Positions 22,429 to 61,200 of a DNA stretch of 64,000 bases are shown in pieces. The notes beneath the pieces were generated by a model. It made no database searches. It was not told the DNA's origin and saw only the letters and a list, made by a program, of their open reading frames with translations. Position 1 is the stretch's first letter, and each line of letters begins with the position of its first letter. Location: assembly GCA_009602725.1 (NCBI GenBank), contig WELB01000002.1, positions 194,021-258,020 of the forward strand, read 5' to 3'. Origin of the DNA: Spirogloea muscicola. Its lineage: Eukaryota. Made by a program: the position numbers and the translations under genes.

Positions 22429-25400
22429 TCACTCGGTGGCAACAAGTGATTTAGGATACGTCAACCCAGCACCAAATGCTCCGAGATTCTGGAGCATCTC
22501 AACCACGTCAACCATCGTTGGCCTTTCTTTTGGGATATCGGAGCAGCAAAGTAGCCCCAATCTCAAGGCACCCCGAAATTCGTCCACTTTCTGGGGGACG
22601 AATGGACCTAGCACCATATCAACGCACTCCAAAGGGTTCTCGTGGCGAAGGCAGGATCGCACCCACGAGATTATGTTGCCACCACTTGTAACTTTGGTCT
22701 GAAAGAAAGGGTCAACAGGCCGTTTCTCAGTGACAGTCTCGAGAAGCATCACACCAAAACTGAAGACATCGCTGTGTGTAGTCAGTTGGCCTAGGGCGTA
22801 GTCTGGACCGATATACCCAACGGTGCCTGCCCATGTGCATCAAAATGACGTGTCATGAGTTGCAGGAAAGATGACCCATGATCATTACAGGCAGTCTGAG
22901 GTGCCTCTACCAGCATAAATCTACACATCCTTTTTGCACGACGCCAGAAAGGCCTACGATACAGCTCAACGGACATTGGAGGGCATTGGGAATACCTGCA
23001 GCCATGGTTGACACGTGCGTGTCATGTGCCTGAAAGGTTCGTGCAAGCCCAAAATCTGCCATGTATCCTTGACCATGTTCATCCAACAAGGTGTTGCGCG
23101 GCTTGACGTCCCTATGCAGCACTCGAGGTTCGCACTCGTGATGCAGGTACTTAAGCCCAACTGCTGCACCCAACATGACCTTCTTACGTGCAGCCCAGTG
23201 ATCAAACCCTTCTGGCTTTGGAGGCACGCCATCTCCCCCGTGCACCAATTGGTCAAGATCCCCGCCAGGCAAGAATGGATAGATGAGCAGCATGTCCACG
23301 TCTCTGTCCTTCGGAATGTACCAGCCCCGTAGCGGGACCACGTTGCGGTGATGGATTTGACTCAATATCTCCACCTCAGCTTTCACTGATCTCAGTTTCT
23401 GCTTGTTGTCTGGCGCTAGCTTCTTCACTGCATACTTTTTCCCGTCCTTCATCTGCGCACTGCTCAGCAATTTGCATCGTAGTGAAAGTTTGCCACAGGA
23501 TAAGAAAGAGCTACAGGATAAATAGATAGCCGGAACAACAAGCACCAAAAGTAATGCATCGCTTGCAAGCAGGGCAATGCACGTACACATAGACATTCCC
23601 GAAGCCGCCCGAACCAATGACGTGGTTGTCACTGAAGTCCTCAGTTGCGTCCATGAGCTCATCGTGAGTGAAGGGAGCTTGGAGTCTATTCGGAGTGATG
23701 GACAACTCGGAGCAGAAGCTCTCAATGCTCCGCTCCTTCTTTGTCATAATTTTGTGCTTCTTCTGAGCACAGCAACACAGCAGGAGAAGTCCCAGCAACA
23801 GGAGGAGAAGGAGGACAACAGCCCCAACAACAATGCCGGCGATTGCCCCTCCTGATAAGCTCGACGATTGGTGCTCTGAAGGTGGTGGAGCTGTCTTGCA
23901 GGCCACATAAGGGCCGCCACACAAGGCTGCATTGCCAGAGAAGGAGCTGCTGTTGTAGTGACCAATAGAACCGCCAGGAATGGGCCCACTGAGGTTGTTA
24001 TTCGAAATGTTGAAGAAGAGAGCAAGGCTCAGATTAGCAAAGGATGCCGGGATGCTGCCGTTGAGATTGTTATTGGAAAGATCGAGATAGGCGAGACTCG
24101 GCAAGTTGCCTATACTCTCCGGTATGGGCCCGCTGAATGAGTTGCTTGCAGCCGAAAATGTAGTGAGCTTGCTTAATTCTCCAATTTCCGGGGGGAGACT
24201 GCCGGTTAGGCGGTTGTTGGAGATGTCAAGAAATTGAGCGTTTTGCAGACCTCGAATGCTCGCAGGTACTCCTCCGGTCAAGCTGTTGTGACTTAGGTTA
24301 ATAGTCAATGCACTGCTTAGGTTGCCAAGCCACTCTGGGAATGGGCCAGAGAAATTGTTATTTTCCATCACCAGCTCTTGCAAGTTCTCCAGGTTGGAGA
24401 AGGTTGTCGGAATTGGTCCTGAGAGGCTGTTGCCAGTGAGGTAGAGCCCGTGAGCAGCAGAAGTGTCCCCAACTGAGGTGGCACAAGGCCACTCAATCTG
24501 CCAGTAAGTGCGAGTGAGCCGCTGAGTGACAATGCCAGCTGTGACTCTTCTGCAGTTTATGTATCTGCTGACATGGTAACTCAGGCAAGCATTGGCTCCA
24601 ATGAAGACGCGGTCCTAGCTCAGCACCTGTTGTAGCTCAGGTCCAGGTTGACCATTACCGTGCAATTTGCAAGCTCTGGTGGCACTCCACCCTCCAAGCT
24701 GACACCAAACGAGAATTTGATTGTGGGTGATCTGACACTTGCAAGGTCGACCTCATACGTAGCACAGACTGAAACAGCACACTTAATCCAGTTTGTTTAC
24801 ACTGCAGGCATGATGAAAATCATAAGCGATCACAAATTTTAATAGTCACATGCTGTAATCCGCTGCCAAATCTCAGACTTTTGCTTCTATCACCTATTGT
24901 TGGCTGCCTGGAACTCGAGGAGATTAATCAGCTCCCCAAGCTCTTCCGGAACCACTTCAACAAGCCTGCCATGATAATATGCAGAGTGCCACCTCATCAG
25001 TTATATTAGGGTTGGTGGTGGACAAATTGTGGACAACTAAAAAGTTCTTTGAAGGCTACACCGACAGTGGAATCTGGGGCCAAATACACATGCCTTGACT
25101 TGAGAAACTGAGTTCTTGCAAGTCACCCAAGCAGTTGACATGGCCGGCAAGAAACCCCTTACAGGTTGAAGCTCAGGTCCAGGTGCCGGAGCTTTTTGCA
25201 CTTGCTTAGCTGCTTCGGTATGCGGCCCGATAATCTGTGGTTGGTAAAGGAGGAAGGGCTCTATAAAACAATGCCGTGACAGCTGCCTATGATGATTTGT
25301 ATTCTGACATTATAGAAGGTAGCATGGAAACTGTTAGGTTCAAGATTCATCAATGCCAAAGATTTACTCGACAACAAAGAAGTAATACCCACTTGTTGGA

Positions 25401-28400
25401 ATACAAGAAGAGGGTTGACAGATTAGCCAAGTTGCCATATGATTGAGGGATGGGCCCGCTGAGTCTGTGGAAAAGGTATGAAAGACTGTGAGCAGCATGT
25501 TTACAGGTCTCACAAGCGCGAAGAATGTGATGTACAGTATAATACTTCAGCAAAGCCCCACTGTTTGTGACAGACTTCTACTACTGCAGAACAGAGAATG
25601 AGATGCACCGTGTCTGTCTCATGGTTTCTAACACTGCAGGCTTCGACTGTGAATGACTATGTCTATCTCATTGATCACATTGCACACAAGGGATATTTAC
25701 ATGCCAAATAAGTTTGGACACTGACAGCTGGTCGTGAGATGATTGAAGGAGAGACCTCTGCAAGAGAAATTTCTCTGGCTACATGAGCAATACCTATTTC
25801 CCTGAAGGTTGAGCTCGCCAAGTGCCTTACAGTGACTAAGCTCTGGTGGGAGGCTACCACTTAAGCTGCGCAAGAGACCATGCAATAGCACGGCCGCTTG
25901 AAACATCTGCTTGGCGGTCCTGTGCCCCCTTGGTAGGTTGCTTCAGGTCCACATGCTAGTGTTACATCCAGGCTTAGATTGCAAGGTCTCAATTGCGGTA
26001 CTTCTTGTACTCTGTCAATCAGTAGAGCTAGTCATACCTGTTACCTTGTGCCAAGAGGGAGTACATGCTGGTAAGATTGCCAAATCCAGGCGGAATTGTA
26101 CCAGTAAAGCTGTTGATCAAGCACACTCACCCAAATTAGCTTCTCGAGATGGTACAAGCTGCATGATGATTTAGGGCTGTGCTTGATGTGCAGCATTGTG
26201 ACATAAAATTGAAGAGAAAAGGCGCAGGACTGCGCACCTGTTGTTATTAAGCTCAAGGTTTGTCAGATTCTGGCAATTGCCAATTGCTGGTGGTAGGGAG
26301 CCTGTCAGCCTGTGCACGTACGTGTCGGATCAAATTTCTCCCAGACAACATGCATCAAGCAGACCTCAATATGCCCGGGAGCAGACTTCATGGAAAAGTT
26401 AGACATACTGCTGTGTGCCAGCCACACCGTCACACTACTTTGAGGAGGAGTGCAGTATTGAGAGTACTTGTTGTTGTAGAGGATAAGCTTAGTGAAAGTT
26501 CCACTTATTCCAAGGTCGGCCGGCAGGCTTCCAGATATACTGCATGGCGGCAGCAAGTAGAGATAATATCAGGAGTTGTCATGATCGGTTGGCTTAGACT
26601 TTGACTTCTCTGTGTTGTCGCAGACGACCATCAGTAAATAGCTTGCCACGTTTGTATGTGGTCACTTACCGATTATTCGACATGAAAAGGACCTGTGAAA
26701 GGGACAGGTTTGCCAGTGAAGCGGGGAACTCCCCGCTTAATCTGCAACATGTTGTGAGGCTTGCCACTGAGATGCACAGCAGATTCGCATCGACTCCAAG
26801 AGTGCAATGCAAATGCAACTCTCTGAGAACAGCGAATCCAATGTGGCCAGCCTACTACTGATTGTCATTGACATAGAGATTGGTGAGACTGGCGCAGTTT
26901 CCCAACTCCGATGGTGAAGGACCAGTAAGGCTGCGTCGCAACGAAGAGCTTCAACAACCGTCCACCTTCCCTATAGCTTCGTGCCCGATGACCACTTCAG
27001 CAATCAGACAAACTCATAATTATATTGATGTTGTCAAGCTCACTGTGTCTCAAAGACACTCAGTGCAATGATGCCTTGACGCACTACGCACGGCACAATT
27101 CTGCTAGGACTGTCTTACTCATACTTACTTATTGTTCCCCAAATTTAGAATACTCAACATTCGAAGGTTGCCAATGCTTGAAGGTATGACTCCCGTCAAT
27201 CTGAACGCAAGCCAATTGCAGGGCATCGGCATACGTGCCACCTGGTCCTCGAATGCCTTGCTTTGAACCTTGATACATGCTATATTGAGCATGCCACATA
27301 GTCGCATACACTGCTCAGAGCAATGTGAGCGCTGACTTGTTGTTGGATGCATCAAAGCTTGATAGCGATGTGCAGTTCCCGATCATCGCAGGGATGCTTC
27401 CTGTAAGTCTGTTGATGTCATTGAGAAAAGGACAATCAGTCTGCCAATAAACTCAGGTGGCAGGGGACCTGACAAACTGCAGCGGCAATTCAAGGCCGCC
27501 CTCAGCTTGACGTGACCTGAGTATGAGTGTACTTATCAGCACCCCAGCAACAGGAGCAAAGCACTGCGGCATAACAGATGCTGCATGAGAGGTGGAAGTC
27601 TATGTGGCTCCTTCCCTGTTGCAGTGTCTGTTAATAATCAGTCCAAGAGGAAGGTGGCAATATGACTGACCTACAATACGAGGCGTAGAAGTACTGCAAT
27701 TTTTGCAGCTTGCCAATTGAGCTTGGAATCCGACCAGAAAAGCTGCAACAGTTCATCCGGTTCTCATTAGAAGCCTTTCACAACATCCATTCAGAGTCTT
27801 CAGTCTTTGCAGTGAGTAACTATAGAGGGTAGAACCTGGATGACAAAGGGAAGGAAGAGCACGTGGCTTCACCTGTTGAAACTCACATATAACGAAGTGA
27901 GGAGTGTGCAGTCCCCTAGTGTTGCTGGAAGTGGGCCCGAAAACCTTGGCCAAGAAGGAGTCTTATTGACGGGTTAACAAATCGATTAGCAAGGGCACAG
28001 GACTCTGCGCACCGGTTTTTAATAAGCTCAAGGTTCGTCAGATTCTGGCAATTGACAACTGCTGATGGCAGGGAGCCTGTCAGCCTGTTCAGGTATGTGT
28101 CAGGTCAACTTTCTCCCAGACAACATGCAATAAGAAGACCTCAATATGTACGGGAGCGGTCTTAATGGAGAAGTTAGACATACTGCTGTGTGCCAGCCAC
28201 ACCGTCAGACTAGTTTGGAGAGGAGTACAGTGTTGAGAGTACCTGTTGTTGTGGAGGCTAAGCTCAGTGAGAGTTCCACTCATTCCAAACTCGGCGGGCA
28301 GGCTTCCAGATATGCTGCATGGCGGCAGCAAGGAGAAGTGACGTCAGGGTTTGTTCATAATTGGTTGGCTTGGACTTTGACTTCTCTGTGTTGTTGCAGA

Positions 28401-31400
28401 CGACCATCAGTGAATAGCTTGCCACGTTTGTATGCGGCACTTACCGATTATTCGATATGTCAAGGACCTGTAGAAGGGACAGGTTTGCCAGTGAAGCGGG
28501 GAACTCCCCGCTCAATCTGCAACATGTTGTAAGGCTTGCCATTGAGATGCACAGCAGAGTCGTATCAACCTCGACGAAACAATGCAACGCAACTCTGTGA
28601 GAGCAGCGACTCCAATGTGGCCAGCACTCTGGCTCTTATGTGCACAAATAGCAGTCAGCTCCCTCATGAACTGGGAGCTTGTTGCACGAGCTGCCCTGCA
28701 CGTAGGGACAGCAGAGCAGGCCTACATGCCTGACACTTGGGCAAAAGGAATATTGGAGCTTACTGGTTGTCATTGACATAGAGACTGGTGAGACTGGCGC
28801 AGTTTCCCAACTCCGATGGTAAAGGACCAGTAAGGCTGCGTGGCAACAAAGAGCTTCAACAACTGTCCACCTTCTCCATAGCTTCGTGACCGACGACCAC
28901 TTCATCAATCAGACACACTCGCATTTGAGTTGATGTCGTCAAGCTCACTGTGTCTTAAAGACACTCCTTGCAATGATGCCTTGATGCGCTACGCACGGCA
29001 CAACTCTGCTAGGAGTGTCTTGCTCATACTCACTTATTGTTACACACTCCTAACGTACTCAACAATTGAAGGTTGCCAATGATCGAAGGTATGACTCCCG
29101 TCAATCTGGATGCAAGACAACCACGGGGCATTGGCATACGTGCCACTTGGTCCATGAATGAGTTGCCTTGAACTTGATGATGATGCCTTGATGCGCCACG
29201 CACTGCTAGGAGTGTCTTGCTCATACTTACGTATTGTTCCCCAATTCTAACGAACTCAACACTCGAAGGTTGCCAATGCTTGAAGGAATGACTCCCGTCA
29301 ATCTGAATGCAAGACAACTGGAGGGCATTGGCATACGTGCCACCTGGTCCATGAAAGCCTTGCCTTTGAATTTGGACACGTGCAATATTGAGCACGCCAC
29401 AAAGTCTCATATACTGCTCAGAGGAATGTGAGAGCTGACTTGTTATTGGATGCATCCAAGCTTAACAGCGATATGCAGTTCCCGATCGTGGCAGGAATGT
29501 TTCCTGTAAGTCTGTTGATGTCATTGAGAAAGGGACAATCAGTCTGCCAATAAACTCAGGTGGCAGGGGACCTGACAAACTGCAGCAGCAATTCAAGGCC
29601 GCCCTCAGCTTGACCTGACCTGAGTATGAGTGTACTTATAAACACTCCAGCAACAGGAGCAAAGCACTGCGGCAATACAGGTGCAGCATGAGAAGCGGAA
29701 GTCAATGTGGCTCCTTCCCTCTAGCAGTGCCTGTCAGTGATCAATCCAAGAGGCAGGTGGCGATATGACTGACCTACAATCCGAGGCGAAGAAGTTCTGC
29801 AAATTTTGCAGGTTGCCGATTGAGCTTGGAATCTGTCCAAAAAACCTGCACCACATTTATCCGATTCTCATTGAAGCCTTTCACAACATCCATTCACAAT
29901 TTTCAATCTTCGAAGTATTGAAATTTAGAGGGTGAAACCTAGAAGTCGAAGGGTACGTGGCCTCACTTGTTGTAACTCAAATATAACGTGGTGAGGAGTG
30001 TGCAGTCCCCTATTGTTGCTGGAAGTGGGCCCGAAAACCTTGGCAAAGAAGGAGTCACATTGACGGAGTCACAAATTGCCATGGCGATACATGAGAGCAA
30101 TGCAACCTCTTCAAATTAGCAGTAAGTAGCAGCATGAGAAGGGTGGGAACAATGACAACCAGCCCATGTGACCTCACCCATTGTACCCGAGGAAGAGACC
30201 AATCAATCGGTTACCGGGGCCACATAGTTCAGGAGGAAGTATGCCTTCCAACCTGAAGGGAGCATGTCATTAGCAGATGGCATTTGCTACCGAACGTTGG
30301 ATCCAGCTGCTTTCTTTTAGGCTGCAGGATGCATACTCTCACTGTATATGACATCTGCTACTACAGGGAACTTCAGCTGACGACATCCTTAATCTTGGGA
30401 AAATGCATCTACAGAGGTCTATCAGAAACATACGCATTATTGCTGAGGCTCAAATAGATCAGGGAGATCCTTCCCAGTTCAGCAGGTATGGTGCCTGTCA
30501 GGCTGCAATATACAGAAGAAATCATCACTTAAGATGGCACAGCAACACTCATATGGCACCGCGCTTGCGGCATCTGCACCATAAGGGGCTTCAGGGTCTT
30601 GGCAATGCCAATGATAGCGTGGTCTGCCTGTGCTAGATCAGATAGTGCAACCAAGAGTTCAGCTTGTTCTGCAAGAAAGGTTGCGTACTTGTTATTGTGT
30701 GCAAAGAAGCCCGTGAGATTGACTAACTGACCAAACTCCTTTGGAATAGGTCCTGTCAGACTAGGAATCCACAGTGCCACACAAGCAAATACGTCACACC
30801 TGCAGCCCCAGGAAGCAAAGAGTGCAGCAAGCTGGCAACAAGACTGGCAACTTGATTTACAATGGCTAACAATCTGCAAGCAATAACCTGTTGTTGTAGA
30901 CATTGAGGAACTCAATTCCGGGTCATCGCAAGCTCCACAGGCATGGCCCCAACAAACCTAGACCAGCGTCAAGCAATGCCAAAGAGCAACTCTTACAAAG
31001 GAAGCCAAGGAGATAACACCAGAAAAGTAGTGTAGCTAAAATGTTGTGATCATCCTTTTCTACCAAGATGAATGCTGCAAAGCCACCAGTCCATGCGGAG
31101 TAAGCAGAGTGACCAACAGTCTTTTATGCTCTGCAGCACACCTGTTGAAGGAGACGTCGAGAGCAAGGAGCTGCGAGCAATTTCCGAGCGCAGATGGTAT
31201 GCTTCCTGACAGCCTGGACAGGAAGGATAGTCACCAATATATGTAAGCCACCGTGAGCATGCAGTGTATCCAAAGTGACCACTGGTCTTCCATGCTCTAC
31301 ATCGCACCTATTTGAGGAGATGTTTAAAACAAGGAGCTGCGAGCAATTTCCGAGCGCGAATGGTATGCTTCCTGATAGCCTGGACAGAAAGGATAGTCAC

Positions 31401-33449
31401 CAATATTTGCAAGAAGTGTTACAGGTGATGGCAGTAAGATGCAAGTTGCATGTCCTTAATCCCTGCATGCCTTCCACGTCATTGCTGACGACAACAAAGT
31501 GCAATGGAGTAGGTGCAGCAGAAAAACTTAAATTGCTGGAGAGATGACAACACCAACGCAACATATCACATTTGTCGGCTCTTCACAAGGCAGATGTCTG
31601 ACGGCATAAAGAGGCCCCAACCTTGAGGGCAACCTCAGGATGTGCCTTCCATTGACAAGTATACTTACTGATTGTCTGCGAGTGACAAATACTGGAGGAC
31701 CTGGTTTTGGCCAAGCTGAGAAGGAATATGTCCTGTGAGCCTGATATCAAGAGCAGAGACTTCTCTTGAGCAACCAGCCAGCTGGTTGCTCTACTGGGCA
31801 CTTGTCCCGTGAGGCTGCACATTTGGCCTTGTCAGAACCCAATCCAGGAAGTGGACGCGGCATGAGCATAGGGCAGTATGTCCACCACAACTTCCAAAAT
31901 CTCATCTTCAAATTACGAACAAGGTTCTACAGGGACCTGTTGCTTGTCAAGTACAACGCCTCCAGGAGCGGAAGCCCAGCAAGACCGAGAGGTATGGCTC
32001 CTGTCAACCTGCACAACGACAGGTGGCGATGCGGTCGCTCCCTAAATCGTTAATGCAAGCATTAAGGCCATTGGACCCGGCTGCAAGAACCTTGACAGTT
32101 GATGAAGCTTCATAGCAGCTTGACTTCATAGCACTGCCAGGCTCAACTGAGGCTTCAGAAGCTTGTCGAGCTTTAGCGCTAAAGGTTGGCAATTGATAAT
32201 CATGCAGAGCAAACTGGCTGTTGTTGTCAGATTGCGAACAAGGTGTCTCCAGCATGCGTAGTTGGTGTGCGCCCAGTAAATGTTACTGTAAAGGTAGAGG
32301 CCCCGGATGGCAGAGAGGTTCCCGAGCTCCTCTGGTAGGGAACATCACTTTGAACGCAGGCCCCCCAGGAGATGTGAGATGGAGAAAGGATGGAGACTCA
32401 CTTTTGTAAAAAATAAACTTAGATGCAAATCGAGCAACTTACGCATACTAACCTGTTATTTCCGAGGAAGAGGACTCGAAGATAAGGGAGGCTGCCCAGC
32501 GCCGCTGGGATGGGGCCCGTGAGCAGATTGTCATTTAAGAATATGTAGTGCAGGCTGTCAATGTTGCCGAGCTCCGCTGCAAGCGTGCCGTCCAGTTGCA
32601 CATGAGATACATTGAGCCCAATCACTTGCCTGCACGTAGACACAAGTGGCCAGCTGTGCAGGAAGCTGAGCTCACTGAAGTCTTCACCCCAAGCAGAGCA
32701 TCCCAATGAGCTTGCTACGACGCTGCTGTCATCACAAACCCTTCGCCGAGCAACCGCAGGCAGCCGCTGCGGTCGGTCCTGGCCGGAGGCTGCAAAGGCT
32801 GCGCCCCTTGCATGGCCACGACCACAACAGCAGCTGCCGCCAGGGCTACCAAGCTTGTGCCGGTCGCTTGACATGTAGCAATGCCAGCTCGCTCATGTAC
32901 TGGGCAGTGGTCAAAGGTCTTGCCTGCGGCCGCCTGCCGTGGCATGGCACTTGACACCGTACCAGCCGCATGGCGTGTGGTGGGTTGGCCGCCAATTGGC
33001 AAGCGCGCCAAATGGGTCTCTGGTTATGCCGGCCTTGAAGGCCAGCAGCCAGGCCTTGTCGGACCTGCGCGCAAGGAACGATGGCAGTCAGCGGGCAGGG
33101 ATGTATGTTGGCCACACACCTCAGCCATGGCGCTGTGGTGCACTTCGCCACAGAAGCCCAGCGGCGAATGCGCAGATGCAGGGAGGACTCGCAAGAGCAA
33201 TCTGGTAGCGGTTCAGGACTAGCAATGCCGTAATGGAGCGGGGGGTAACAAGAATGCGGCTGCTGATAGTAGAAGACCGGCAGTAGAAGCCAGCCAGGTG
33301 CATACAGGGGGTAAGAGGGTAGGAGCGTAAGAAGAAAGACAGAGCGTAAGAGGGATGACTGCTCACGTGAGGTCCCCAGCCGAAATGCTGACACATTTCA
33401 GCAGAGCGACGGCGATAAGGAGTGCAGCGGCGGCTGCAGTGGCCGCCAT
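22429..33449 (-). CDS. LRR-RLK paralog C, full architecture; two apparent frameshifts (possible pseudogene or sequence errors)
   Basis: Exon 1 33367-33449 (MAATAAAAALLIAVALLKCVSISAGDLT). LRRNT 32924-33064. Exon ~32452-32628. About 31 single-LRR exons (24626-32007). Large exon 23587-24497. Kinase exons 22996-23459 (AVKKL, HRDVKPRN, DFGLAR) and 22429-22826 (GTVGYIGPDY..KRPVDPFF..ERPTM). Frameshifts: -1 at ~24450, +1 at ~30917. Confidence 0.88.
26220..30075 (-). repeat. Intragenic tandem duplication of an 8-LRR-exon block in gene C
   Basis: ~26220-27975 and ~27990-30075 carry the same exon series and homologous introns; copy 2 has an extra single-exon duplication (29034 and 29231). Confidence 0.9.
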
Positions 33450-33749
33450 GCTCGACGACTGCGGCTACGCAGGCTGTGCTGCCAGCAGCCGGCAGCTGGG
33501 CAGAGGTGCTGCCGGGCCTCGCCACGGCGGGGCCGCTAGTGCTTCGCCCAGGCGGCGGCGAGGGATCCGGTGTCGGCGAGCGTGGTGCGCGTCAAGCGGG
33601 GGGAGAGAAGCTTTCCGAGAAAAGACAAAGCCAAAGGCGAAGAAAAGTCGGAGAAGAAGAGGAAAAAGGGAGAGGAAGCTCTTTCAAGTGGACGAGGGCC
33701 GTGAGAAGAAAGAGAGAAAAGCGCGGCCGAATTGAAAGAAAGGCACAGC

Positions 33750-35090
33750 CATTCCGAAGGTCGCTTCCATTCTTTCTATCGGGCTGACCAATCACAGCCA
33801 TCGCCCACTATTGGAATAGTTCTTCATCAATGGAAGGCAATGGTTGTAAAACGTAGATCTTCCAAGGGGGGCAAGGGCTGTTAAAATAGGAAAAATAGTG
33901 GCTGTCCCATAAGAAGGCAAAGTGGCTCTTCAGGGGGCAGGGGCTGTGAACAGCCAGCCCGGCAAGTATAGGTCCGAAGGGGCCAAAACTCGCTTCCCCA
34001 AGAAAGTGGCTATCCCAAGGCTGTTCCGGTAGGAAAATCAGGTTGTGGAAAAAGTGGCTCTCCAGAGGGGGCAAGGGCTGCGAACAATTCCCTTTGACGA
34101 AAGCCAGAGTCTGCAGCTAGAGCGAAGCCAGAGATTCCTGTAGAGGGGCTGTGATTGGCCAGCCCAGATTTAGAAATTTCGAAGAGGCCAGAAAAGATAA
34201 GGGCGACTCAAGTGGCCACTGGGTGCTCAGTATCCCCTGTTGCTTTTCTCTGGCCCCTTCGAATTTTCTTGAGTATAGTTTCTGGGCTGGCCTACCACCG
34301 CCCTCTCCTGGAAGCGTCTTTCTTCCCAAAGCCACCGCCCTTTCCTGGATGTCATTCTCCTGTCATTCTCCTACACGGGCCGTCCGGCGCTCGGTGGGTC
34401 GAGCTTCTTCACCAGCTCTCGCGCAGCGCGGTCTCCCGCCGGTACCATGGGAGCAGGCTGAACGTCAACGCAACAGGCTCTCTCGCGCAGGTGTGTCGCA
34501 TGCGCCTGTCAGTCTCGCTGCGGTGGTCCATGGCACGCGCGCTGCATCTGCGTGCCGGTCGCGCATTAGCTGCAGCCTCTGGCTTTGTCCAGGGGACCCG
34601 CTACCCAGAGACCAGTTTCTCCGACCTGCGGCTACTTGAGTAGCACTCAAGTAAACACTCAGTAACAGAGGTTACTGAGTGTTTCGTGCTACTTGATTCC
34701 TTGTGTGCTTTAGCTGCTTCTCTGGCCCCTTCGAACTTAATTCGTTCTCTTTCTGGGCTGGCCTGCCGTCTCCTGGAAGCGTCTTCTCTCTCCTGTTGAG
34801 CAGCCGCAAGTTAGGACAACTAGTCTCCGGATTCCAGGAAGCGGAAAGAGCTGGGAGGTGCAAAACGACGAAGCTACTCTTCGTGATATCTACGAATGGA
34901 CTCACAAGGAGAAGGAAGAAGGAAAGGACGTTTCCAGGAGAGGGTGGTGGCTGTGGGAGGCCAGCCCAGTGAAAGAATGAACGAAGCTCGAAGGAAACAG
35001 AGAACACGCTAGAGCACATAGTGAATCAAGTAGTCACGAAACACTCAGTAACCCCTGTTGAGCAGCCACAGGTCGGAAAAAGAAGAAGTG
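33750..35090. mobile_element. Nest of retrotransposon 3' fragments upstream of gene C
   Basis: Repeated AAGTGGCTNTC..GGGGCAAGGGCTG ends (33850-34090), family-B-like ORF end 34370-34643 (+), several GGGCTGG..CCAGCCC motifs. Confidence 0.78.
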
Positions 35091-37850: not shown

Positions 37851-37989
37851 CAGAGGAGGACAACTGATGTCGCTCATCCGCCCCAAGCCGGGCCGTCGTG
37901 CACTGTTAGCTTTGCGCTTAAGGCAATGACGCACTTCATGAGGTTTATCCGAGACGCGTCAATTGCTGGTTGAAAACTTATTCCAAAGC

Positions 37990-41812: not shown

Positions 41813-44800
41813 TCACTCGGTGGCAACGACTGATTTGGAAACGTCAACCCAGCACCAAATGCTCCGAGACTCTGGATCATCTCAACCACGTCTTCCATTG
41901 TTGGCCTCCTGTTTGGTATCTCGGAGCAGCAAATTAGCCCCAATCTCAAAGCGCCCCGGAATTCGTCCACTTTCTGGGGGACGAATGGAACTAGCGCCTA
42001 TCAACGCACTCCAAAGGCTTCTCATGACGAAGGCAGGATCGCACCCATGAAATCACATTGCCACCGATTGCAACTTCGGTTTGAAAGAAAGGGTCAACAG
42101 GCCGTTTGCCAGTGACAGTCTCGAGAAGCATCACTCCAAAACTGTAGACATCGCTGTATGTAGTCAGTTGGCCTAGGGCGCAGTCTGGACCGATGTACCC
42201 GACTGTACCTGCCCATGTGCACCATCGTGAGGCGTCATGAGTTGCAGGAAAGATGACCCATAATCATTGCCAGGCAGTCTGAGGTGCCTCTACCAGCATG
42301 TAACCACACATCCTTCTTGCACGATGCAAGAGAGGCCTACGATACAGCTCAATGGACAGTGGAGGGCATTGGAATTACCCGCAGTCATAGTTGACACGTG
42401 CGTATCATGTGCCTGAAAGTTCCGCGCAAGCCCAAAATCCGCCACGTACCCTTGACCTTGTTCATCCAACAAGGTGTTGCTCGTCTTGACGTCCCTATGC
42501 AGCACCGGAGGTACGCACTCGTGATGCAGGTACTTAAGCCCAACTGCTGTACCCAACATGACCTTCTTACGTGCAGCCCAGTGATCAAACACTTCTGGCT
42601 TCGGAGGCACGCCATCTCCCCCGTGCACTAGTTGGTCAAGATTACCGCCAGGCAAGAATGGATAGATGAGCAGCATGTCCACGTTGCTGTCCTTGAGGAT
42701 GTACCAGCCCCGTAGAGGAACCAAATTGCGGTGATGGATGCGACTCAATACCTCCACCTCAGCTTTCACCGATCTAAGTCCTTGCTCGTTCTCTGGCGCT
42801 AGCTTCTTCACTGCATACTTTTGCCCGTCCTTCATCTGCGCACTGCTCAGCATATTGCATCGTCGTGAAACTTTGCCATAGGATTTGAAGAGCCATAGGT
42901 TTGAAAAATCTACCGGGACAACAAGCACCAAAATTAGATATTGCAGCAGGGCAATGTTTCTTCTAATGTACGTACCCATAGACTTCCCCGAAGCCGCCTC
43001 TGCCCACAATGTATTTTTTGTTGAAATTATCAATTGCAACCAAAAGCTCCTCGTAGGTGAAGGGAGCTTGGAGTCTATCCTGAGTGATGGACAACTCGGA
43101 ACAGAAGCTCTCAATGCTCCGCTCCTTCTCTGTCATAGTTTTGTCCTTCTTCCGAGCTAAGCAACACAGCCGGAGCAGTCCTAGCAACAGGAGGAGAAGG
43201 ACACCAAGAGCCCCAACAACAATACCGGCAATGGCCCCCCTGATAAGCTCGACGACTTGTGCTCCGGAGGTGATGGGGAAGGAGGAAGAGAACGAGGGGG
43301 AGGAGCGGTCTTGCAGGCCACATAAGGGCCGCCACACAAGGCGGCATTGCCAGAGAAGGAGCTGCTGCCATACTGACCAATAGAACCGCCAGGAATGGGC
43401 CCACTGAGGTTGTTATTTGAGATGTTGAAGAAGTCAGTAAGACTCAAATTAGCAAAGGATGCCGGGATGCTGCCATTGAGATTGTTGTTTGAAAGATCAA
43501 GATAGGTGAGACTCGGCAAGTTGCCAATACGCTCTGGTATAGGCCCGCTGAATGAGTTGCTTGCAGCCGAAAATTCAATGAGCTTGCTTAATTCTCCAAT
43601 TTCCGTGGGGGAGACTGCCAGTTAGGCGGTTGTTGGAGATGTCAAGATATTGAACGTTTTGCAGACTTCGAATGCTCGCAGGTACTCCTCCGGTCAAGCT
43701 GTTATGACCAAGGTAAATAGTTAATGCACTGCTGAGGTTGCCAAGCCACTCTGGGAGTGGGCCAGAGAAGAAGTTACTTTCCATCACCAGCACTTGCAAG
43801 TTCTCCAGGTTGGAGAAGGTTGTTGGGATTGTTCCAGAGAAGTTGCTCAACCAGCAAGCCATAGCTGGTTGAGCAGCACAAGTCTCCCCAACTGAGGCGG
43901 CGGGTGGCCACTTAACCTGCCAATGCGTACAAGTGAGCCGCTAGTAACGCCGGCTGTGGCCCTTCTGCAATTTATGTACCTGCTGACATGGTAACTCAGG
44001 CAAGCTACGGCCCCGATGAAGACGCAGTCCTAGCTCAGCACCTGTTGTAGCTCAGGTCCAGGTTGACCATTGCCCTGCAGTTAGCAAGCTCTGGTGGCAC
44101 TCCACCCTCCAAGCTGAAACCAAACGAGCATTTGATAGTGGGTGATCTGATACCTGCAAGGTCGACCTCATACAAAGCACAGACTGAAAGAGCACACCAA
44201 ATCTAGTTGGCTTGACACTGCAGGTGTGATGAGAATCAATATGCAATCTCAAAAATCTACAGTCACATGCTGTAGTATGCTGCAGAACTGTTAGACCTTT
44301 TGCTTCTATCACCTGTTGTTGCTTGCCTGGAAGGTGAGGAGATTAGACAGCTCCCCAAGCTCTGGCAGTACTCCTCCAAGAAGCCTGCCATATTGATATA
44401 CAGAGTGCCACCTCATGAGCTATTAGGGTTGTTGTCGGACTTAGTGTGGACAATTATGATCTTGGAATGCTACACCCAGAGTGAAATATTCTAGAGCCAC
44501 ATACACATGCCTTGACCTGAGAAACTGGAGTCTTGCAAGTCACTCAAGCAATTGACATAGGCGGCAAAGGAACCCCTTACAGGTTGGAGCCCAGGCTGAG
44601 GTACAGGAGCTTTTTGCACTTGCTTAGCTGCTTCGGTATGCGGCCCAATAATCTGTGATCAGAACAGGAGAAAGGGCTCTCAAACGTTGCCATGGCAGCT
44701 TACTATGACGACATTGTGACCTCACTTCATGGGAGGTAGCATGCGAACAGTCATCAATGCCGTCATTTTATCTGACAACAAGGAGTGATGCCCACTTGTT

Positions 44801-45529
44801 GGAATTCAAGAAGAGATGTGACAGATTAGCCAAGTTGCCATATGATGGAGGGATGGGCCCACTGAGACTGCGGAAAAGGTATTAGAGACTGTGAGCAGCA
44901 TCCTCACAGGTCCCACAAGCACGGACGAAGGGGTATAAAGTACAGTAACTCAGCAGAGTCAGCAGAGCCCAAGTGATTGTGATAGACTTCTACTACTGCA
45001 GAACCAGAGAGTGATTCACAACGTGTCTGTCTTATTAGTCTCCTTGCCAAAAGCACGAATACATGGGGTATCAATAAAACACTTCGGCAGAGCCCGACTG
45101 TTTGTGACAGACTTCTACTACTGCAGGCTTAAACTAGTGAAAGACAACGTGTCTATTTAGATAGATTACACTGCACACACGAGGCAGTCACATGCCAAAT
45201 AAGTTGGACACTGACATGAGGAGTACCTGTTGCTCTGGAGGTCAAGCGAGCCAAGTGACCTACAGTAACTGAGCTCGGGGGGGAGGCTACCTGTTAAGCT
45301 GCGCAAGAAGGCTACCTGTTAAGCTGCGCAAGAGACCGTGCAAAGGCATGGCCGCTTACAAGTCCGTCGGAGGTCCTGTGACTCCTTGGTTAGATGCCTC
45401 AGGTGCACATGCTAGTGTTACGTCCAACCTTAAATTGCAAGTCTGACTTGAATAGTTTCTGTAGTCTGTCAATCAGCAGAGCTTAACATACCTGTTATTG
45501 CTTGCCAAGAAGGAGTACATGCTGGTAAG
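41813..45529 (-). pseudogene. LRR-RLK paralog D, 5' part replaced by retroelements
   Basis: Kinase exons (~41813-42207, ~42379-42842; HRDVKTSN, DFGLAR), large exon ~42975-43915, five single-LRR exons and a sixth cut at 45529. In-frame TGA at ~43848; 1-bp indels at ~43605, ~43238, ~41998 and ~41835. Confidence 0.9.
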
Positions 45530-52298: not shown

Positions 52299-55200
52299 TC
52301 ACTCGGTGGCAACGAGTGATTTAGGAAATGTCAACCCAGCACCAAATGCTCCGAGATTCTGGAGCATCTCAACCACGTCAATCATTGTTGGCCTTTCTTT
52401 TGGAATATCGGAGCAGCAAAGTAGCCCCAATCTCAAGGCGCCCCGGATTTCGTCCACTTTGTGGGGAACGAATGGAGCTAGCACAATATCAACGCACTCC
52501 AAAGGCTTCTCGTGGCGAAGGCAGGATCGCACCCACGAGATCAAGTTGCCACCAGTTGCAACTTCAGTCTGAAAGAAAGGGTCAACAGGCCGTTTGCCAA
52601 TGACAGTCTCGAGAAGCATCACTCCAAAACTGAAAACATCGCTGTATGTAGTCAGTTGGCCTAGGGCGTAGTCTGGACCGATATACCCGACTGTGCCTGT
52701 CAATGTGCATCATCGTGACACGTCATAAGTTGGAGGAGAGATGACTCATGATCATTGCCAGGCAGTCTGAGGTGCCTCTACCAGCATCAATGCACACATC
52801 CTTCTTGCACGACGCCATAAAGGCCTACGATACAGCTCAACGAACATAGGAGGGCATCGGGAGTTACCTGCAGCCATGGTTGACACGTGCGTGTCATGTG
52901 CCTGAAAGGTCCGTGCAAGCCCAAAATCCGCCATGTACCCTTGACCATGTTCATCCAACAAGGTGTTGCTTGGCTTGACGTCCCTATGTAGCACCCGAGG
53001 TTTGCACTCGTGATGCAGGTACTTAAGCCCAACTGCTGCACCCAACATGACCTTCTTACGTGCAGCCCAGTGATCAAACCCTTCTGGCTTTGGAGGCACG
53101 CCATTTCCCCCGTGCACCAATTGGTCAAGATTTCCGCCTGGCAAGAATGGATAGATGAGCAGCATGTCCACGTCGCTGTCCTTAGGAATGTACCAGCCCC
53201 GTAGCGGGACCAGATTGCGGTGATGGATGCGACTCAATACCTCCACCTCAGCTTTCACCGATCTCAGTCCTTGCTTGTTATCTGGCGCTAGCTTCTTCAC
53301 TGCATACTTTTGCCCGTCCTTCATCTGCGCACTGCTCAGCATTTTGCATCGTAATGAGGTTTTTCATAGGATAAGAAGAGCCATGTTATAATTAGATGAC
53401 CGGGACAACAAGCTACAAGAAGACCACCGCTTGCAAGCAGGGCAATGTACGTACATATAGACTTTTCCAAAGCCGCCCTCTCCAATAATGTGGTTGTTGT
53501 TGAAATCCTCAGTTGCGTCCATGAGCTCCTCGTAGGTGAAGGGACCTTGGAGTCTGTCCTTAGTGATGGACATCTCGGAGCAGAAGCTCTCAATGCTACG
53601 CTCCTTCTCTGTCATACTTTTGTCCTTCTTCCGACCTAAGCAACACAGCAGGAGAAGTCCCAGCAACAGGAGGAGAAGGAGGACAACAGCCACAACAACA
53701 ATGCCGGCAATTGCCCCCCCTGATAAGCTCGACGACTTGTGCTCCGGTGGTGGGGGAGGAGGAAGAGAAGGAGGTGGGGGAGCTGGCTTGCAGGCCACGT
53801 AAGGGCCGCCACACAAGGCGGCATTGCCAGAGAAGGAGCTGCNAATGAGTTGCTTGCGGCCGAAAATGCAATGAGCTTGCTTAACTCTCCAATTTCCACA
53901 GGGAGACTTCCACTTAGGCGGTTGTTGGAGATGTCAAGTTCTTGAACGTTTTGCAGACTCCGAATGCTCACAGGTACTCCTCCGGTCATGTTGTTGTGAC
54001 CTAGAAAAATACTCAATGCACTGCTTAGGTTGCCAAGCCACTGTGGGAATGGGCCAGAGAAAGTGTTACTGTCCACGTTCAGGAATTCCAAGTTCGCCAG
54101 GTTGGAGAAGGTTGCCGGGATCGGTCCAGAGAAATTGTTGCCACGAAGCCAGAGCTCGTCGAGCTGGGCAAGTCTCCCCAACTGAGGCGGCACGTGGCCA
54201 CTTAACCTGCCAGTATTTGCGAGTGAGCCGCTAAGTGACAATGCCTGCTGTGACTCGTCTGCAATTTATGTATCTGCTGACATGGTTACTCAGGCAAGCA
54301 TTGGCTCCAATGAAGACGCAGTCCTAGCTCAGCACCTGTTGTAGCTCAGGTCCAGGGTGACCATTGCCGTGCAACTCGCAAGCTCTGGTGGCACTCCACC
54401 CTCCAAGCTGACACCAATCGAGCATTTGATAGTGGGTGATCTGACACCTGCAAGGTCGACCTCATATGTAGCACAGACTGCAACAGCACGCTAAATCCAG
54501 TTGGCCTTACACTGCAGGCGTAATGAAAATCATTAGCGATTGCAACTATCTACAGTCTCATGCTATAATCCGCTGCCGAGTCTCAGACTTTTTCTTCTAT
54601 CACCTGTTATTGCTTGCCGCAAAGTCGAGGAGATTAATCAGCTCCCCAAACTCTTGCGGAATGCCTCCAACAAGCCTGCCATGTTCAATATGCAGAGTGC
54701 CACCTCATCAGCTATTAGGGTTGGTGTTGAACTGATTGTGGACAATTGAAAAGTTCTTGGAATGCTGCACCGAGAGTGAAATCTAGAGCCACATACATAT
54801 GCCTGCTTGAGAAACTGAATTCTTGCAAGTCACCCAAGCAGTTGACATGGGCGGCAAGAAACCCCTTACAGATTGAAGCTCAGGTCCAGGTGCCGGAGCT
54901 TTTTGCACTTGCTTAGCTGCTTCGGTATGCGGCCCGATAATCTGTGATTGGTACAGGAGGAAGGGCTTATAAAACAATGCCGTGGCAGCCGACTATGATG
55001 ATTTGTATCCTGACTTCATGGAAGGTAGCATGGAAACTGTCAGGTTCAAGATTCTTCAATGCCAAAGATTAGTCAACAACAAAGAAGTAATACCCACTTG
55101 TTGGAATACAAGAAGAGGGCTGACAAGTTAGCCAAGTTGCCATATGAAGGAGGGATGGGCCCGCTGAGTCTGTGGAAACGGTATGAAAGACTGTGAGCAG

Positions 55201-58200
55201 CCTTCTCACAGGTTGCACAAGCACGAAGAATGTGATATGCAGTATAATACGTCAGCAGAGCCCCACTGTTGTGACAGACTTCTATTACTGCAGAATCAGT
55301 AATAGATGTGCAACGTGTTTATATCATGGTTTTCTTAGTCAAAAGACTGAACACATGGGGTATCAATACAACACTGTAGCAGAGCCCCACTGTCTCTGAC
55401 ACACTTGCAAGACTGCAGGCTTAGACAGTGAATGACTATGTCCATCTAATCAGATCACACTGCACAAAAGAGGGATAGTTACAAGCCAAACAAGTTGTAC
55501 ACTGACAGCTGGTCGTGAGATGATTGAAGGGACGACCTCTGCAAGAGCAATTTCTCTGGCTACATGAGCAATACCTATTTCTCTGAAGGTTGAGCGCGCC
55601 AAGTGCCTTACAGTGACTCAGTTCTGGTGGGAGGCTACCACTTAAGCTGCGCAAGAGACCATGCAATAGCACGGCCGCTTGAAACATCTGCTTGGCGGTC
55701 CTGTGCCTCCTTGGTAGGTTGCTTCAGGTCCACATGCTAGTGTTACATCCAGGCTGAGATTGCAAGGTCTCAATTGCGGTACTTCTTGTACTCTGTCAAT
55801 CAGTAGAGCTAGTCATACCTGTTACCATGTGCCAAGAGGGAGTACATGCTGGTAAGATTGCCAAATCCAGGCGGAATTGTACCAGTAAAGCTGTTGATCA
55901 AGCACACTCACCCAAATTAGCTTCTCGAGATGGTACAAGCTGCATGATGATTTAGGGCTGTGCTTGATGTGCAGCATTGTGACATAAAATTGAAGAGAAA
56001 AGGCGCAGGACTGCGCACCTGTTGTCATTAAGCTCAAGGTTTGTCAGATTCTGGCAATTGCCAATTGCTGGTGGCAGGGAGCCTGTCAGCCTGCTCAGGT
56101 ATGTGTCAGATCAGATTTCTCCCAGACAACATGCATCAAGCAGACCTCAATATGCACGGGAGCAGACTTCGTGGAAAACTTAGACATACAGCTGTGTGCC
56201 AGCCACACCGTCACACTACTTTGAGGAGGAGTGCAGTATTGAGAGTACTTGTTGTTGTAGAGGATAAGCTGAGTGAGAGTTCCACTTATCCCAAGCTCGG
56301 CGGGCAGGCTTCCAGATATACTGCAGGGCGGCAGCACGCAGGGGTTGTTCATGATTGGTGGGCTTAGACTTTGCATTCTCCGTGTTGTTGCAGACTACCA
56401 GCAGTAAATAGTTTGCCACGTATGTATGTGGCACTTACCAATTATTCGAAATGACAAGGACCTGTAGAAGGGACAGGTTCGCCAGTGAAGCGGGGAACTC
56501 CCCGCTTAATCTGCAACAGGTTGTAAGGCCATTGAGATGCCATTGAGATGCACAGCAGTGTCGCATTAGCTTCAAAAGCGCAATGCAACTCTCTGAGAGC
56601 AGCGAATCCAATGTGGCCAGCACTCTGTGCACAAGTAAGAGTCAGCTCCCTTATGAATTGGGAGCTTGTTGCGCAAGATGACCTGCACGTAGGAACAGCA
56701 GAGCAGGCCTGATGCTTGAAATTTGGGCAAAAGGCATATTGGAGCTCACTGGTTGTCGTTTACATAGAGATTGCTGAGATTGGCGCAGTTTCCCAGCTCT
56801 GACGGTAAGGGACCAGTAAGGCTGCGTCGCAACGAAGAGCTTCAACAACCGTCCACCTCCTCTATAGCTTCGTAACTGACGACCACTTCATCAATCAGAC
56901 ACTCACGATTTGAGTTGATGTTGTCAAGCTCACTGTGTCTTAAGGACTCTCCTTGCAATGATCCCTCGATGCGCTACGCACGGCAACATTCTGCTAAGCC
57001 TGTCTTGCTCTTACTTACTTATTGCTCCCCAAACGTAACAAAGTCAACATTTGAAGATTGCCAATGCTTGAAGGTATGAGTCCCGTCAATCTGAATGCAA
57101 GACAAGTGTGCCATTCAAGCTGCCAATCGAAGCAGTCTCAAATGGCCTCAAAACAGGACTACGCCGTGAGGAGAATGTTGTTAATGACATGGCCTCAACA
57201 GTCAAAATCAGCGATGTGTTACTTACAAGTAGCAGCACTACATACCTGTTACCCGCGAGGTTGAGATATCTCAGCTTGGCACAATCTCCAAAGTCAGATG
57301 GCAGGGGACCTGACAGACTGCAGCAGGAAGCCAAGGCCGCCCTCAGCCTTTTGTGACCTGAGTATGAGTGTGCTGAAGAGCACCCAGCAACAGGAGCAGA
57401 GCTCTGTGACAACAAAGATGTGGCATGAGAATTTTGAGAACATATATCTGGCTCTTCTAAGGTAGCAGTGGCCGTTAACGAACAGTCCTAGAGAAGGAGA
57501 CCGGATGACTGACCTACAATACGCGGCGGAGAAGTACTGCAGCTCTTGCAAGTTGCCAACTGTGCTTGGTATCGGACCAGAGAATCTGCAACAGATCATA
57601 CCGTTCTCACTGAGGCCTCTGACAATATCCAGTCAGATTCTTCAGTCTTTTGAAGTAAGCAAAGCTAGAGGTGAATGTGGAAGACAAAGGGTAGGGAGAG
57701 CACGTGGCCTCACCTGTTGTTACTCAAGAATACCGAGGTGAGATTTGTGCAGTCCCCTAATGCTGCTGGAAGTGGGCCCGAAAACCTTGGCCAAAAAGGA
57801 GTCACATTGACAGATTACCAATTTGGCATGGCAATACAAGAGAGCAATGCAACCTCTTCATGGCAACCGCCAAAAGAAGCATGAGAAGGGTGGGAACAAT
57901 GACAGCCAGCCCATGTGACCTCACCCATTGTACTCGAGGAAGAGACCAATCAATCTGTTACCCAGGCCACATAGTTCAGGAGGAAGCATGCCTTCCAACC
58001 TGGAGGGACCATGTCATCAGCAGATGGCATTTGCTACCGAGGGATGATCCAGCTGCTTTGATCAAGGCTGCATGATGCAAACTTTCACTGTGTGTGATGT
58101 TTACTACAGGGAAATTGAGCTGATGACACCTATTAAACAAAAACATGCATCTACAGAGGTCTATCAGGAACATACAAATTATTGCCGAGGCTCAAACCGA

Positions 58201-61200
58201 TCAGGGAGGTCCTTCCCAGCTCAGCAGGGATAGTGCCTGTCAGGCTGAACAAATACAGAGGACATCACTATCACATCATCACTGTAATAGCACAGCGCTA
58301 CTCATACGGCACAGCGCTTGCAACATCTGCACCATGAGGGGCTTCAGGGTCTTGGCAATGCCAATAATAGCATGATTTGCCTGTGCTAGATCAAACAGTG
58401 CAACCGAGAAGTCAGCATGTTCTGCAAGAAGGTTGCATACTTGTTATTGTATGCGTAGAAGATTGTGAGATTGACTAGTTGACCAAATTCCTTCGGGATA
58501 GGTCCTGTCAGACTGAGAACCCACAATGCCACACAAGCAAACACGTCACAATTGCAGCCTCAGGAAGCAAATAGTGCAGCAAGCTGGCAACAAGACTGGC
58601 AACTTAATGTCACAGTGGCTAACAATCTGCAAGCATTTACCTGTTGTTGTAGACATTGAGGAACTCAATCCGGGTCATCGCAAGCTCCACAGGCATGACC
58701 CCAACCAACCTAGACCAGCGTCAAGCAATGTCAAAGAGCAACTCTACTGAAGAAAGCCAAGGAGATAACACAGGAAAGAAGGTCTAGCTACAGTGTTGTG
58801 TCATCCTCCTCTACCAAGATGGATGCTGCAAAGCCACCAGACCACGCAGACTAAGCAGAGTGACCAATAGTCTTCTATGCTCTGCAGCACACCTGTTGAA
58901 AGAGACGTCGAGAGTAAGAAGCTGCGAGCAATTCCCGAGCGCAGATGGTATGTTTCCTGACAGCCTGCACAGGAAGGTTAATCACCAATGTATGCAAGCC
59001 ACCGTGACCTTGCAGTGTATCCAAAGTGACCATTAGTCTTTCATGCTCTACAGCGCACCTGTTTAAGGAGACGTTGAGACCAAGGAGCTGCGAGCAATTT
59101 CCGAGCTCAGATGGTATGCTTCCTGATAGCCTGGACAGGAAGGATAGTCACCAATGTTTGCAAGAAGTGTTACAGCTGGCAGTAAGTGGCAAGTTGCATG
59201 TCCTAGCCCCTGCATGCCTTCACTTCATTGCTGACGACAGCAAAGTGCAATGGTAGTAGGTGCAGCCGCACAATGAATATCTGGAGAGATGACAGCACCA
59301 AAGTGACATATCCCATTTTACATGGCTCTTCACAAAAGAGATGTCTGACGACATAAAGAGGCCCCAATCCTGAGGCTACCTCAGGATGTGCCTTCCTTCA
59401 ACAATTATACTTACTGATTGTCTGCGAGTGACAAATACTGGAGGACCTGGTTCTGGCCAAGCTGAGAAGGAATATGTCCTGTGAGCCTGACATCAGTAGC
59501 AGAGACTTTCCTTGAGCAACCAGCCAGCTGGTTGCTCTAGCTGCCTTGTGTTATCAGCTATTGACACTGCACTGTACGCGTCGGCAGTATCATTGGAATT
59601 GGAGACGAGATGGAGAAGCAGAATTCGCAGCAGTCAGCCTACAAATTCACCAACTCCTCAGACAACCAATGATCCTGGCAACCCACCTATTGGAGTCCAA
59701 GTATAGTTTTTGGAGGCTCCGAGATTCTCCAAATTCACCCGGCACTTGTCCCGTGAGCCTGCACATGTGGCCTTGTCAGAACCCAACTCATGGAGTGGAA
59801 GCGGCATGAGCAGAGGGCAGTGTGCCCATCACGACTTCCACAACCACATCTCCATCCTGAGAACAGAGTTCTACAGGGACCTGTTGCTCGTCAAAAACAG
59901 CAACTCCAGGAGCGGAAGCCCAGCCAGACCGAGAGGTATGGCTCCTGTAAATCTGCACAACGAAAGGTGACATTGTGGGCGCTCCCTAGAATGTCAACAC
60001 AATCAAGGCCATTGCACCAGGCTGCAAGAACCTCGACAGTTGACGGAGCTTCATAGAAGCTTGACTTCATAGCACTGCCAGGCTCAATCGAGGCTTCAGA
60101 AGCTTGTCTAGCTTGCTTAAAAGCTTGGCGATTGATAGTCATGCAGAGCAGACTGGCTGTTATTGTTGCGAACAGTGTACAGTGTCTCCAGCATGCAAAG
60201 TTGGTGTGCGTTCAGTACGTGTTATTGGAGAGGTCGAGGCCCTGGATGGCGGAGAGGTTCCCGAGCTCCTCTGGTAGAGGACCTGACAGCCTGCCGAAGT
60301 ACAAGAAGACTGAGAGCTCGACCCAGTAGATGGCTCTTGAAGTCGCAATTCTGTGACGAAGTGCTGCCGCCTCGTCGGCTAAACGTTGTACCACAGTCAT
60401 AACGGCCTTGCCTCAGGGAGGCTACACTACCAATCAGCCAAGCAACTTCACTGTGGACTCAGGCCCCCCAGGAGATGTGATATCGAGAAAAGGTGGAGGC
60501 TCACGTTTTCTTTGTAAACAGGTTGTGAGATGCGAATCGAGCAACTTAGGTATGCTAACCTGTTGTTTCCGAGGAGGAGGAATCGAAGAATAAAGAGACT
60601 GCCCAGCGCCGCTGGGATGGGCCCCGTGAGCAGATTGTCATTTAAGAGTATGAACTGGAGGCTGTCAATGTTGCCGAGCTCCGGTGCCAGCGTGCCTTTC
60701 AGCAGCATAGAAGATACATTGAGCTCAATCACTTGCCTGCACATGGACATCAGTGGCCAGCTGTGCAGGAAGCTGAGCTTACTGAAGGCTTGACCCCAAG
60801 CAGAGCTTCCCAGTGAGCTTGCAACGACGCTGCTCTTACACAAGCCCTCCGCCGAGCAAGCCCAGGCAGCCATTGCCGTTGGTCCTGGCGAGAGGCCGCA
60901 AAGGCTGCGGCCCTTGCATGGCCACAACCTCAACAGCAGCTGCCGCCAGGGCTACCAAGCTTGTGCCGGTCGCTTGACACGTTGCAAGGCCAGCTCCCGC
61001 TTTAACTGGGCAATGGTCAAAGCTCTTGCCTGTGGCCGCCAGGTGCTATGGCATTGCACACAACGCCGTACCAGCCGCACGGTGTGAGGTCGGCTGGGCG
61101 CCAATTGGCAAGCGCGCCAAATGGGTCACTGGTTATGCCGGCCTTGAAGGCCAGCAGCCAGGCCTTGTCGGAGCTGCGGAATGGAACGATGGTAGTCAGC

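Follow-up and report, generated by a model that had tools for sequence, protein, structure and literature searches.

A tandem array of leucine-rich repeat receptor kinase genes in the alga Spirogloea muscicola, with evidence of positive selection at a single position of the repeat

In the brown alga Ectocarpus, the leucine-rich repeat (LRR) ROCO genes encode each 24-residue repeat on its own 72-nt exon, are clustered, include pseudogenes, gain and lose repeat exons, carry inverted, non-coding repeat exons within introns, and show positive selection on concave-face positions, and an immune role has been proposed for them (PMC3341825; PMC11378527). The part of the first account that deals with Ectocarpus LRR-kinases reports neither exon shuffling nor clustering (PMC3341825). 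In land plants, positive selection is common in expanded clusters of LRR receptor-like kinases (LRR-RLKs) (PMC5296948). Each ingredient is already known separately: repeats on single exons and under selection from brown algae, and positively selected RLK ectodomains from charophytes (Gong and Han 2021, cited in PMC10588794). For Spirogloea muscicola, 142 RLKs have been listed (PMC10868138) and two other LRR-RLKs have served as an outgroup (PMC8462819); SERK co-receptors have been placed in Zygnematophyceae, and algae may have a pathogen-sensing system (PMC10834447). Here we describe a tandem array of LRR receptor kinase genes in 64,000 nucleotides of S. muscicola DNA (GenBank assembly GCA_009602725.1, contig WELB01000002.1, positions 194,021 to 258,020), hereafter the window, in whose own coordinates all positions are given. 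A literature search, with subscription journals and preprint supplements outside its scope, listed no paper that deals with this array or with zygnematophyte receptor kinases having one exon per repeat.

Self-comparison and an exon scan of the minus strand identified five tandem minus-strand copies (A to E) of one LRR receptor kinase gene in the 64-kb window. Most repeats occupy one exon each, 72 nt long (69 or 75 nt in a few cases) and in phase 2, and the ectodomain introns in the models of A and E are all phase 2. Single-repeat exons number 31 in A, 30 intact in C, 24 in E, five in D, and three in B, and the copies carry from 12 to about 40 repeats. Copies B, C, and D are broken genes; the reading frames of A and E are open, in the case of E on both sides of an assembly gap. 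The array is a real feature, narrower than first claimed, and locally it is largely broken. We hold it moderately probable that this is a tandem receptor kinase family whose copies are born, remodeled, and broken, and in which repeat position 17 outpaces silent sites, likely via selection for new ligand specificities.

A preliminary description of the sequence had proposed that variation between homologous repeat exons is concentrated at the exposed residues of the xxLxLxx strand motif. The x positions of this motif face the ligand on the concave side of an LRR solenoid. With the repeat numbered 1-23, the motif spans positions 16-22, of which 16, 17, 19, 21, and 22 are exposed. The strand motifs quoted in four sets are all present at the expected exons (15 of 15), and the exons within each set are homologous as judged by a score combining exon and flanking intron. 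The four changes reported between C and E (E/A, G/R, Q/H, N/D) are likewise real and all fall on x positions of xxLxLxx. The concentration goes beyond chance: over 20 C/E exon pairs, replacement divergence (dN) falls from 0.21 at the five exposed positions to 0.07 at the remaining x positions and 0.03 at those of the consensus. A likelihood ratio test (LRT) of exposed against other x positions gives a statistic of 41-52.

Codon models written for this analysis, rather than codeml, were fitted to the copies within the window, with a separate tree for each of 24 exon groups, together with the two multi-repeat exons. Seven exons found only in A without homologs, the three broken mini-exons of C, and the cut exon of D were excluded, as were split codons of the mini-exons and codons within two of a gap in the large exon. 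At position 17, omega (dN/dS) is 3.14 (confidence interval 2.22-4.44), and this is the only one of the 23 positions above 1 after correction. In 57 neutral simulations the LRT never rose above 11.3 and omega never above 1.98, against observed values of 34 and 2.98. The positive class of the site-mixture models is significant (M2a versus M1a, p = 2e-4; M8 versus M8a, p = 5e-5), with the highest mean posterior at position 17. The signal is also present on A plus the internal branches (omega 2.65, p = 0.002) and in tree-free tests on four pair sets with one branch length each, where omega at position 17 is 2.5 for A-E (p = 0.0014), 3.7 for C-E (p = 0.0001), 5.4 for C against its own repeated block (p = 0.004), and 6.3 for D-E (p = 0.003). 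The evidence that positive selection acts at this one position of the repeat is good. In the window, codon 17 of each single-repeat exon of E (54336..60290, minus strand) is the x just before LxL, the selected position across the family.

Could the excess at position 17 be artefactual, produced by mutations that hit several nucleotides at once, by short tracts converted from paralogs outside the data, by a hot spot of mutation, or by mis-assembly? Several differences there span two or three bases, many unseen paralogs exist, the simulated null is heavier-tailed than chi-square (4 of 57 values above 10), and the codon code is home-made. The pair tests nevertheless hold when double and triple changes are allowed (A-E, p = 0.015; C-E, 0.0007; C and its block, 0.010; D-E, 0.004). 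The silent rate at position 17 is not raised, with alpha at 0.6 of the average and beta at 3.2 (p = 0.0005); a hot spot is rejected on this count, and neutral conversion would have brought in silent changes too. Perfect contigs match stretches of both C and E, among them one over 31978-32321 of C that is found in all four runs. We consider an artefact very improbable.

For the exposed residues as a whole, as first proposed, omega is not significantly above 1; the excess lies at position 17. Omega is 1.01-1.05 for the exposed class (1.05 on all data, p = 0.61), 0.13-0.14 for buried positions, and 0.49-0.51 for the others, and omega above 1 was not retained for the exposed class as a whole. The repeat scaffold is under purifying selection. 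On single-repeat exons the exposed class reaches 1.26 (p = 0.057; one of 57 simulations higher), and on the seven membrane-proximal repeats it falls to 0.71. These repeats (115-1053 in A and the homologous large exons) share one exon, and their exposed positions are more conserved. The highest-ranking posterior for positive selection nevertheless belongs to one site of the large exon, at repeat position 24 (E/Q/N/F/T).

These class-wide values would fit a second alternative, that the exposed positions are simply unconstrained in a mostly decaying array and that positive selection is unneeded: four of the five exposed positions lie near 1, ten of the 15 motifs first quoted come from copy C, a broken gene, and tips leading to broken copies are relaxed at buried (0.25) and other (0.70) positions. 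Relaxation cannot yield an omega of 3 at one position, a value beyond the neutral maximum given above, and the signal recurs in A-E and on A plus the internal branches. We regard this alternative as improbable and already disfavored.

The explanation by selection at position 17 also has evidence to face. The exposed class differs in omega from other positions (p < 1e-9) but not from 1, the values at positions 16, 19, 21, and 22 (0.66, 1.34, 1.07, and 0.87) have intervals spanning 1, and the positive class of the mixture models comprises just 2-2.5% of sites. Position 17 omega is highest on broken-copy tips, at 3.8 versus 2.65 on A plus the internal branches, which may reflect divergence before breakage or import by conversion. 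The E tip alone gives 3.4 (p = 0.089), and A-E by itself would not withstand a 23-fold correction once multi-nucleotide changes are allowed. Some sequences recur between the pair sets, and the choice of position 17 came from the data themselves. Copy E itself carries an unclosed gap, and 29 nt ahead of one of its exons lies a stray acceptor (57119), use of which would shift the frame. Finally, the kinase is of the RD type, unlike non-RD immune receptors, and immune LRR receptor kinases of the LRR-XII type carry a non-RD kinase. The LRR domains of developmental receptor kinases show positive selection similar to that of defence receptors (PMC10588794).

The last two points bear on the nature of the ligand. 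An RD kinase and the similar LRR-biased selection in developmental receptors (PMC10588794) mean that self ligands have to be considered. Under such an alternative, selection is real and the ligand is the alga's own, such as a peptide hormone or a mating or cell-wall signal, with copies diverging in specificity after duplication. The narrowness of the signal suits it, as do the best named matches of the kinase (PSKR1, PSY1R, RPK2, BRI1, and BAK1). Tandem clustering, the loss of three of five copies, the range in repeat number, and conversion tracts would suit a fast-turnover recognition family better than a developmental receptor that is conserved. We give an own ligand a rather low, though appreciable, chance. 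Clustering and turnover tilt the balance towards foreign ligands, and the receptors of the array may plausibly serve in non-self recognition.

The mechanism that we propose for selection at position 17 starts with unequal exchange and gene conversion between copies, which would move repeat blocks; with all ectodomain introns in phase 2, intron-to-intron events would keep the frame. The product would be a long LRR solenoid with a conserved scaffold, in which length and repeat order change by recombination and the ladder of position-17 residues is selected for new binding. Position 17 is predicted to line the concave sheet of the binding face and may contact the ligand. In a single-sequence fold of the last seven repeats of A, at a predicted local distance difference test score (pLDDT) of 61, it lies in a strand in seven of seven repeats. 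In Foldseek this low-confidence fold matches plant receptor ectodomains (MIK2, RGFR1, FLS2, HAESA), which give no distinction between the immune and the developmental kind. Binding would be relayed by the RD kinase, and a SERK-type co-receptor would probably take part by docking on the membrane-proximal repeats, which are more conserved. The ligand may be a fast-changing foreign peptide or protein surface, which is the least certain step.

Divergence of the neighboring introns was compared as well. Introns of C and E had been described as near-identical; this stands for two of the 16 intron pairs (0/107 and 2/151 differences), which lie in a tract of about 545 bp, and fails overall, with 282 of 2408 aligned sites (0.128) differing. 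One further pair differs at 6/137 sites and the other 13 at 8-22%, so that near-identity is rejected as a general property. Even the range originally singled out (25700-26560) contains 33 C/E mismatches. The tract itself (C 25768..26312, equivalent to about 55549-56093 of E, minus strand) holds nine differences, of which four are replacements, all at exposed positions, three are silent, and two are intronic, and it is likely a product of gene conversion. A contig over 55805-56074 has a depth of 189 versus 97-128 for seven other listed pieces, and this rough doubling on part of the tract would be expected if both near-identical copies are real. Within the tract, replacements at exposed positions are more frequent than changes in introns (4/33 versus 2/258, Fisher p = 0.002, for a tract picked post hoc) but not significantly more frequent than silent ones (4/33 versus 3/59, p = 0.25).

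Across all C/E exons, the comparison named in the preliminary description as able to refute it has a split outcome for the exposed class, since this class lies above intron divergence (41/221 versus 282/2408, p = 0.005) but not above silent divergence (55/399, p = 0.13). When position 17 is removed, it exceeds neither (p = 0.47 and p = 1.0, respectively). Silent divergence is not below that of introns (0.15-0.18 versus 0.128).

The copies have also gained, lost, and exchanged exons. Exons a2-a4 of A are absent from both C and E, a16-a20 are missing from E, and a15-a19 are missing from C; the junctions differ between the two copies, and pieces of exons and stray acceptors persist at them. In E, 57091-57119 still holds the acceptor and the opening bases of an exon that has been lost, 29 nt ahead of the next acceptor. 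A similar remnant lies 68 nt before the exon at 29440-29511 of C and recurs in its second block near 27410-27480. Both C and E have exon a8 in duplicate, a duplication that they share, and a21 is duplicated in C. Self-BLAST and exon grouping delimit a single-exon duplication inside C (29034-29302, minus strand) and, together with junction alignment, a repeated block of eight repeat exons (26206..30076, minus strand). The junction of this block (27979/27980) joins two unrelated introns. The introns of the two blocks differ at 128 of 971 sites (13%), and since this is about as much as C differs from E, C may have arisen by fusion of two sister genes. In A, exons a2-a4 (8229-8762) resemble a5-a7 (7325-7852) in order, with weak scores except for a2/a5; this likeness suggests an old duplication of a three-repeat block. 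The exon events are mixed, some cleanly intron to intron and others cutting exons. We read the remodeling as imprecise deletion and unequal exchange, for which the exon layout is forgiving with respect to frame; no dedicated shuffling machinery is claimed.

The family likely extends beyond the window. A paralogous kinase (P0124, 91%) is encoded on another scaffold, and 150 contigs align at 85% or more to 971 bp of E (55560-56530), although contig depth there gives no copy count. Among the 40 of 211 variable places listed for this stretch, 22 contig variants are not in the two blocks of C, the only copy with which they were compared. The exonic variants among the same 40 places number 13, namely five exposed replacements, three other replacements, one in a split codon, and four silent changes. 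Over 55650-56457, single contigs have joints that skip 71-623 bases of the E repeat region, hinting at further paralogs with other exon sets.

Copy A (115..10200, ends approximate, minus strand) encodes an LRR receptor kinase ectodomain with 40 full repeats and Pfam LRR matches, on one two-repeat exon, the single-repeat exons, and a large exon with seven repeats. These are followed by a C-cap, a proline-rich linker, a transmembrane helix, and the start of the kinase, the remainder of which lies beyond the window. The spliced model from exon 9404-9580 to the large exon has 1113 codons with no stop and 32 introns, all phase 2 and GT..AG. Copy E (52299..61466, minus strand) is a 30-exon gene with a signal peptide, an N-cap with a cysteine pair, its single-repeat exons, a large exon, C-cap, proline-rich linker, transmembrane helix, and RD (HRD) kinase. 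Its spliced model is free of stops both before and after the N at 53843, where about 185 nt of the large exon are missing relative to A; this gap is probably the reason why the public model of E begins after the transmembrane helix. Single-N gaps are present at 53843 and at 10203, in the first-exon region of A. The intron after the N-cap exon has an apparent GC donor in E (61029), with the same letters in A (about 9845).

The broken copies are all on the minus strand as well. Copy B (12330..16400) keeps three single-repeat exons among many frameshifts. Copy C (22432..33450) retains its intact repeat exons and open kinase exons but has frameshifts of -1 near 24450 and +1 near 30915, has lost the acceptor (near 32340) and donor (near 32270) of its first mini-exon, and has a truncated exon at 31796. 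Copy D (41820..45524) retains five single-repeat exons, with frameshifts in the large exon and kinase. One of its exons is cut off near 45524 by unrelated repeated DNA, and the exon scan of the window found no repeat exons of D upstream. The truncating DNA (45524-45950) is an inverted, 92.5% identical version of 16447-16868, just upstream of B. It contains a reading frame reminiscent of a non-LTR retroelement, and Pfam returned no match for three repeat-derived reading frames including this one. Between C and D (34783-39381), summed contig depth rises to about a million versus hundreds over the genes, a sign of high-copy repeats, with related pieces also present at 47000-49000 and 61700-64000.

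The signal peptide, N-cap cysteine pair, 24-residue plant-type repeats, single transmembrane helix, and kinase of E are those of plant LRR receptor-like kinases, and the window genes have Pfam LRR and Pkinase matches. The kinase is of the RLK/Pelle kind (best solved-structure matches BRI1, BAK1, and SymRK, then IRAK4) and RD-type, with HRDVK in C, D, and E and HRDIK in B. Its omega against broken C and D is 0.36-0.37. The kinase exon of E is 100% identical to P0123 (named SM000002S05509), a public protein of 340 residues consisting of the kinase without an ectodomain, so that annotation-based counts probably miss these ectodomains. Identifiers of this format, though not this one, are given for S. 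muscicola in PMC8462819. The public model of P0124 (1735 residues) combines a NAM domain (PF02365), another kinase, and the kinase of this family, and is possibly a mis-joined annotation. A search with the juxtamembrane region returned only distant homologs, nearly all from land plants where named. A search of representative sequences was dominated by multi-kinase fusions, and besides P0123 its best match was a 52% tandem-repeat artefact.

Named kinases match best at 42-48% identity, for RPK2 (LRR-XV) and PSKR1/PSY1R/BRI1 (LRR-X). We built a kinase tree of 41 rows (five of 46 candidates were dropped for short alignment) that held no named XI, XIII (ERECTA), or BRI1 kinases. In this incompletely sampled tree, E and P0124 occupy a long branch within a set of unnamed long-LRR kinases (support 87/87), with RPK2 as neighbor (95/85), outside the LRR-XV and LRR-X clades and apart from CD-type kinases.

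The land-plant LRR-RLK clusters, including Xa21, FLS2, and EFR of LRR-XII, resemble the array in domain order, plant-type repeat, and positive selection on the LRR region of recent paralogs (PMC5296948). Unlike LRR-XII, the array has an RD kinase that groups apart from the CD-type kinases in the tree and up to 40 repeats spread over many exons, and membership in LRR-XII is rejected. Cf-type receptor-like proteins are likewise tandem, exchange sequence, change in repeat number, and are hypervariable at xxLxLxx; in contrast to them the array has a kinase, no island domain was seen, and just one of five exposed positions is above neutral. Cf-type proteins have no cytoplasmic kinase; because B, C, D, and E each continue from the transmembrane exon into exons for a kinase, Cf-type membership is rejected as well. 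The initial likening to Cf, Xa21, and NLR receptors holds to the extent that an exposed strand site (17) has dN/dS above 1, and not as membership of LRR-XII or Cf. ERECTA (LRR-XIII) has one exon per repeat and is a conserved, low-copy developmental receptor. With its many introns (PMC5296948), it resembles the array in joining an intron-rich LRR domain to an RD receptor kinase.

The brown-algal ROCO family is the closest working model, although it is a different protein class: its members have ROC-COR GTPases and belong to an unrelated lineage, whereas the array consists of clustered transmembrane RLK/Pelle kinases with gains and losses of blocks. The array supplies concrete candidates and a single residue ladder for the question of pathogen sensing in algae (PMC10834447). 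It is possible, and we offer this tentatively, that an algal sister of land plants holds a large and mostly unannotated repertoire of modular pattern-recognition RD kinases, in which one-repeat exons are swapped, gained, and lost among tens of copies and perhaps joined in alternative transcripts, while a single ladder of binding residues is rewritten by selection; this would be an immune-type receptor family independent of the LRR-XII and receptor-like protein expansions of land plants.

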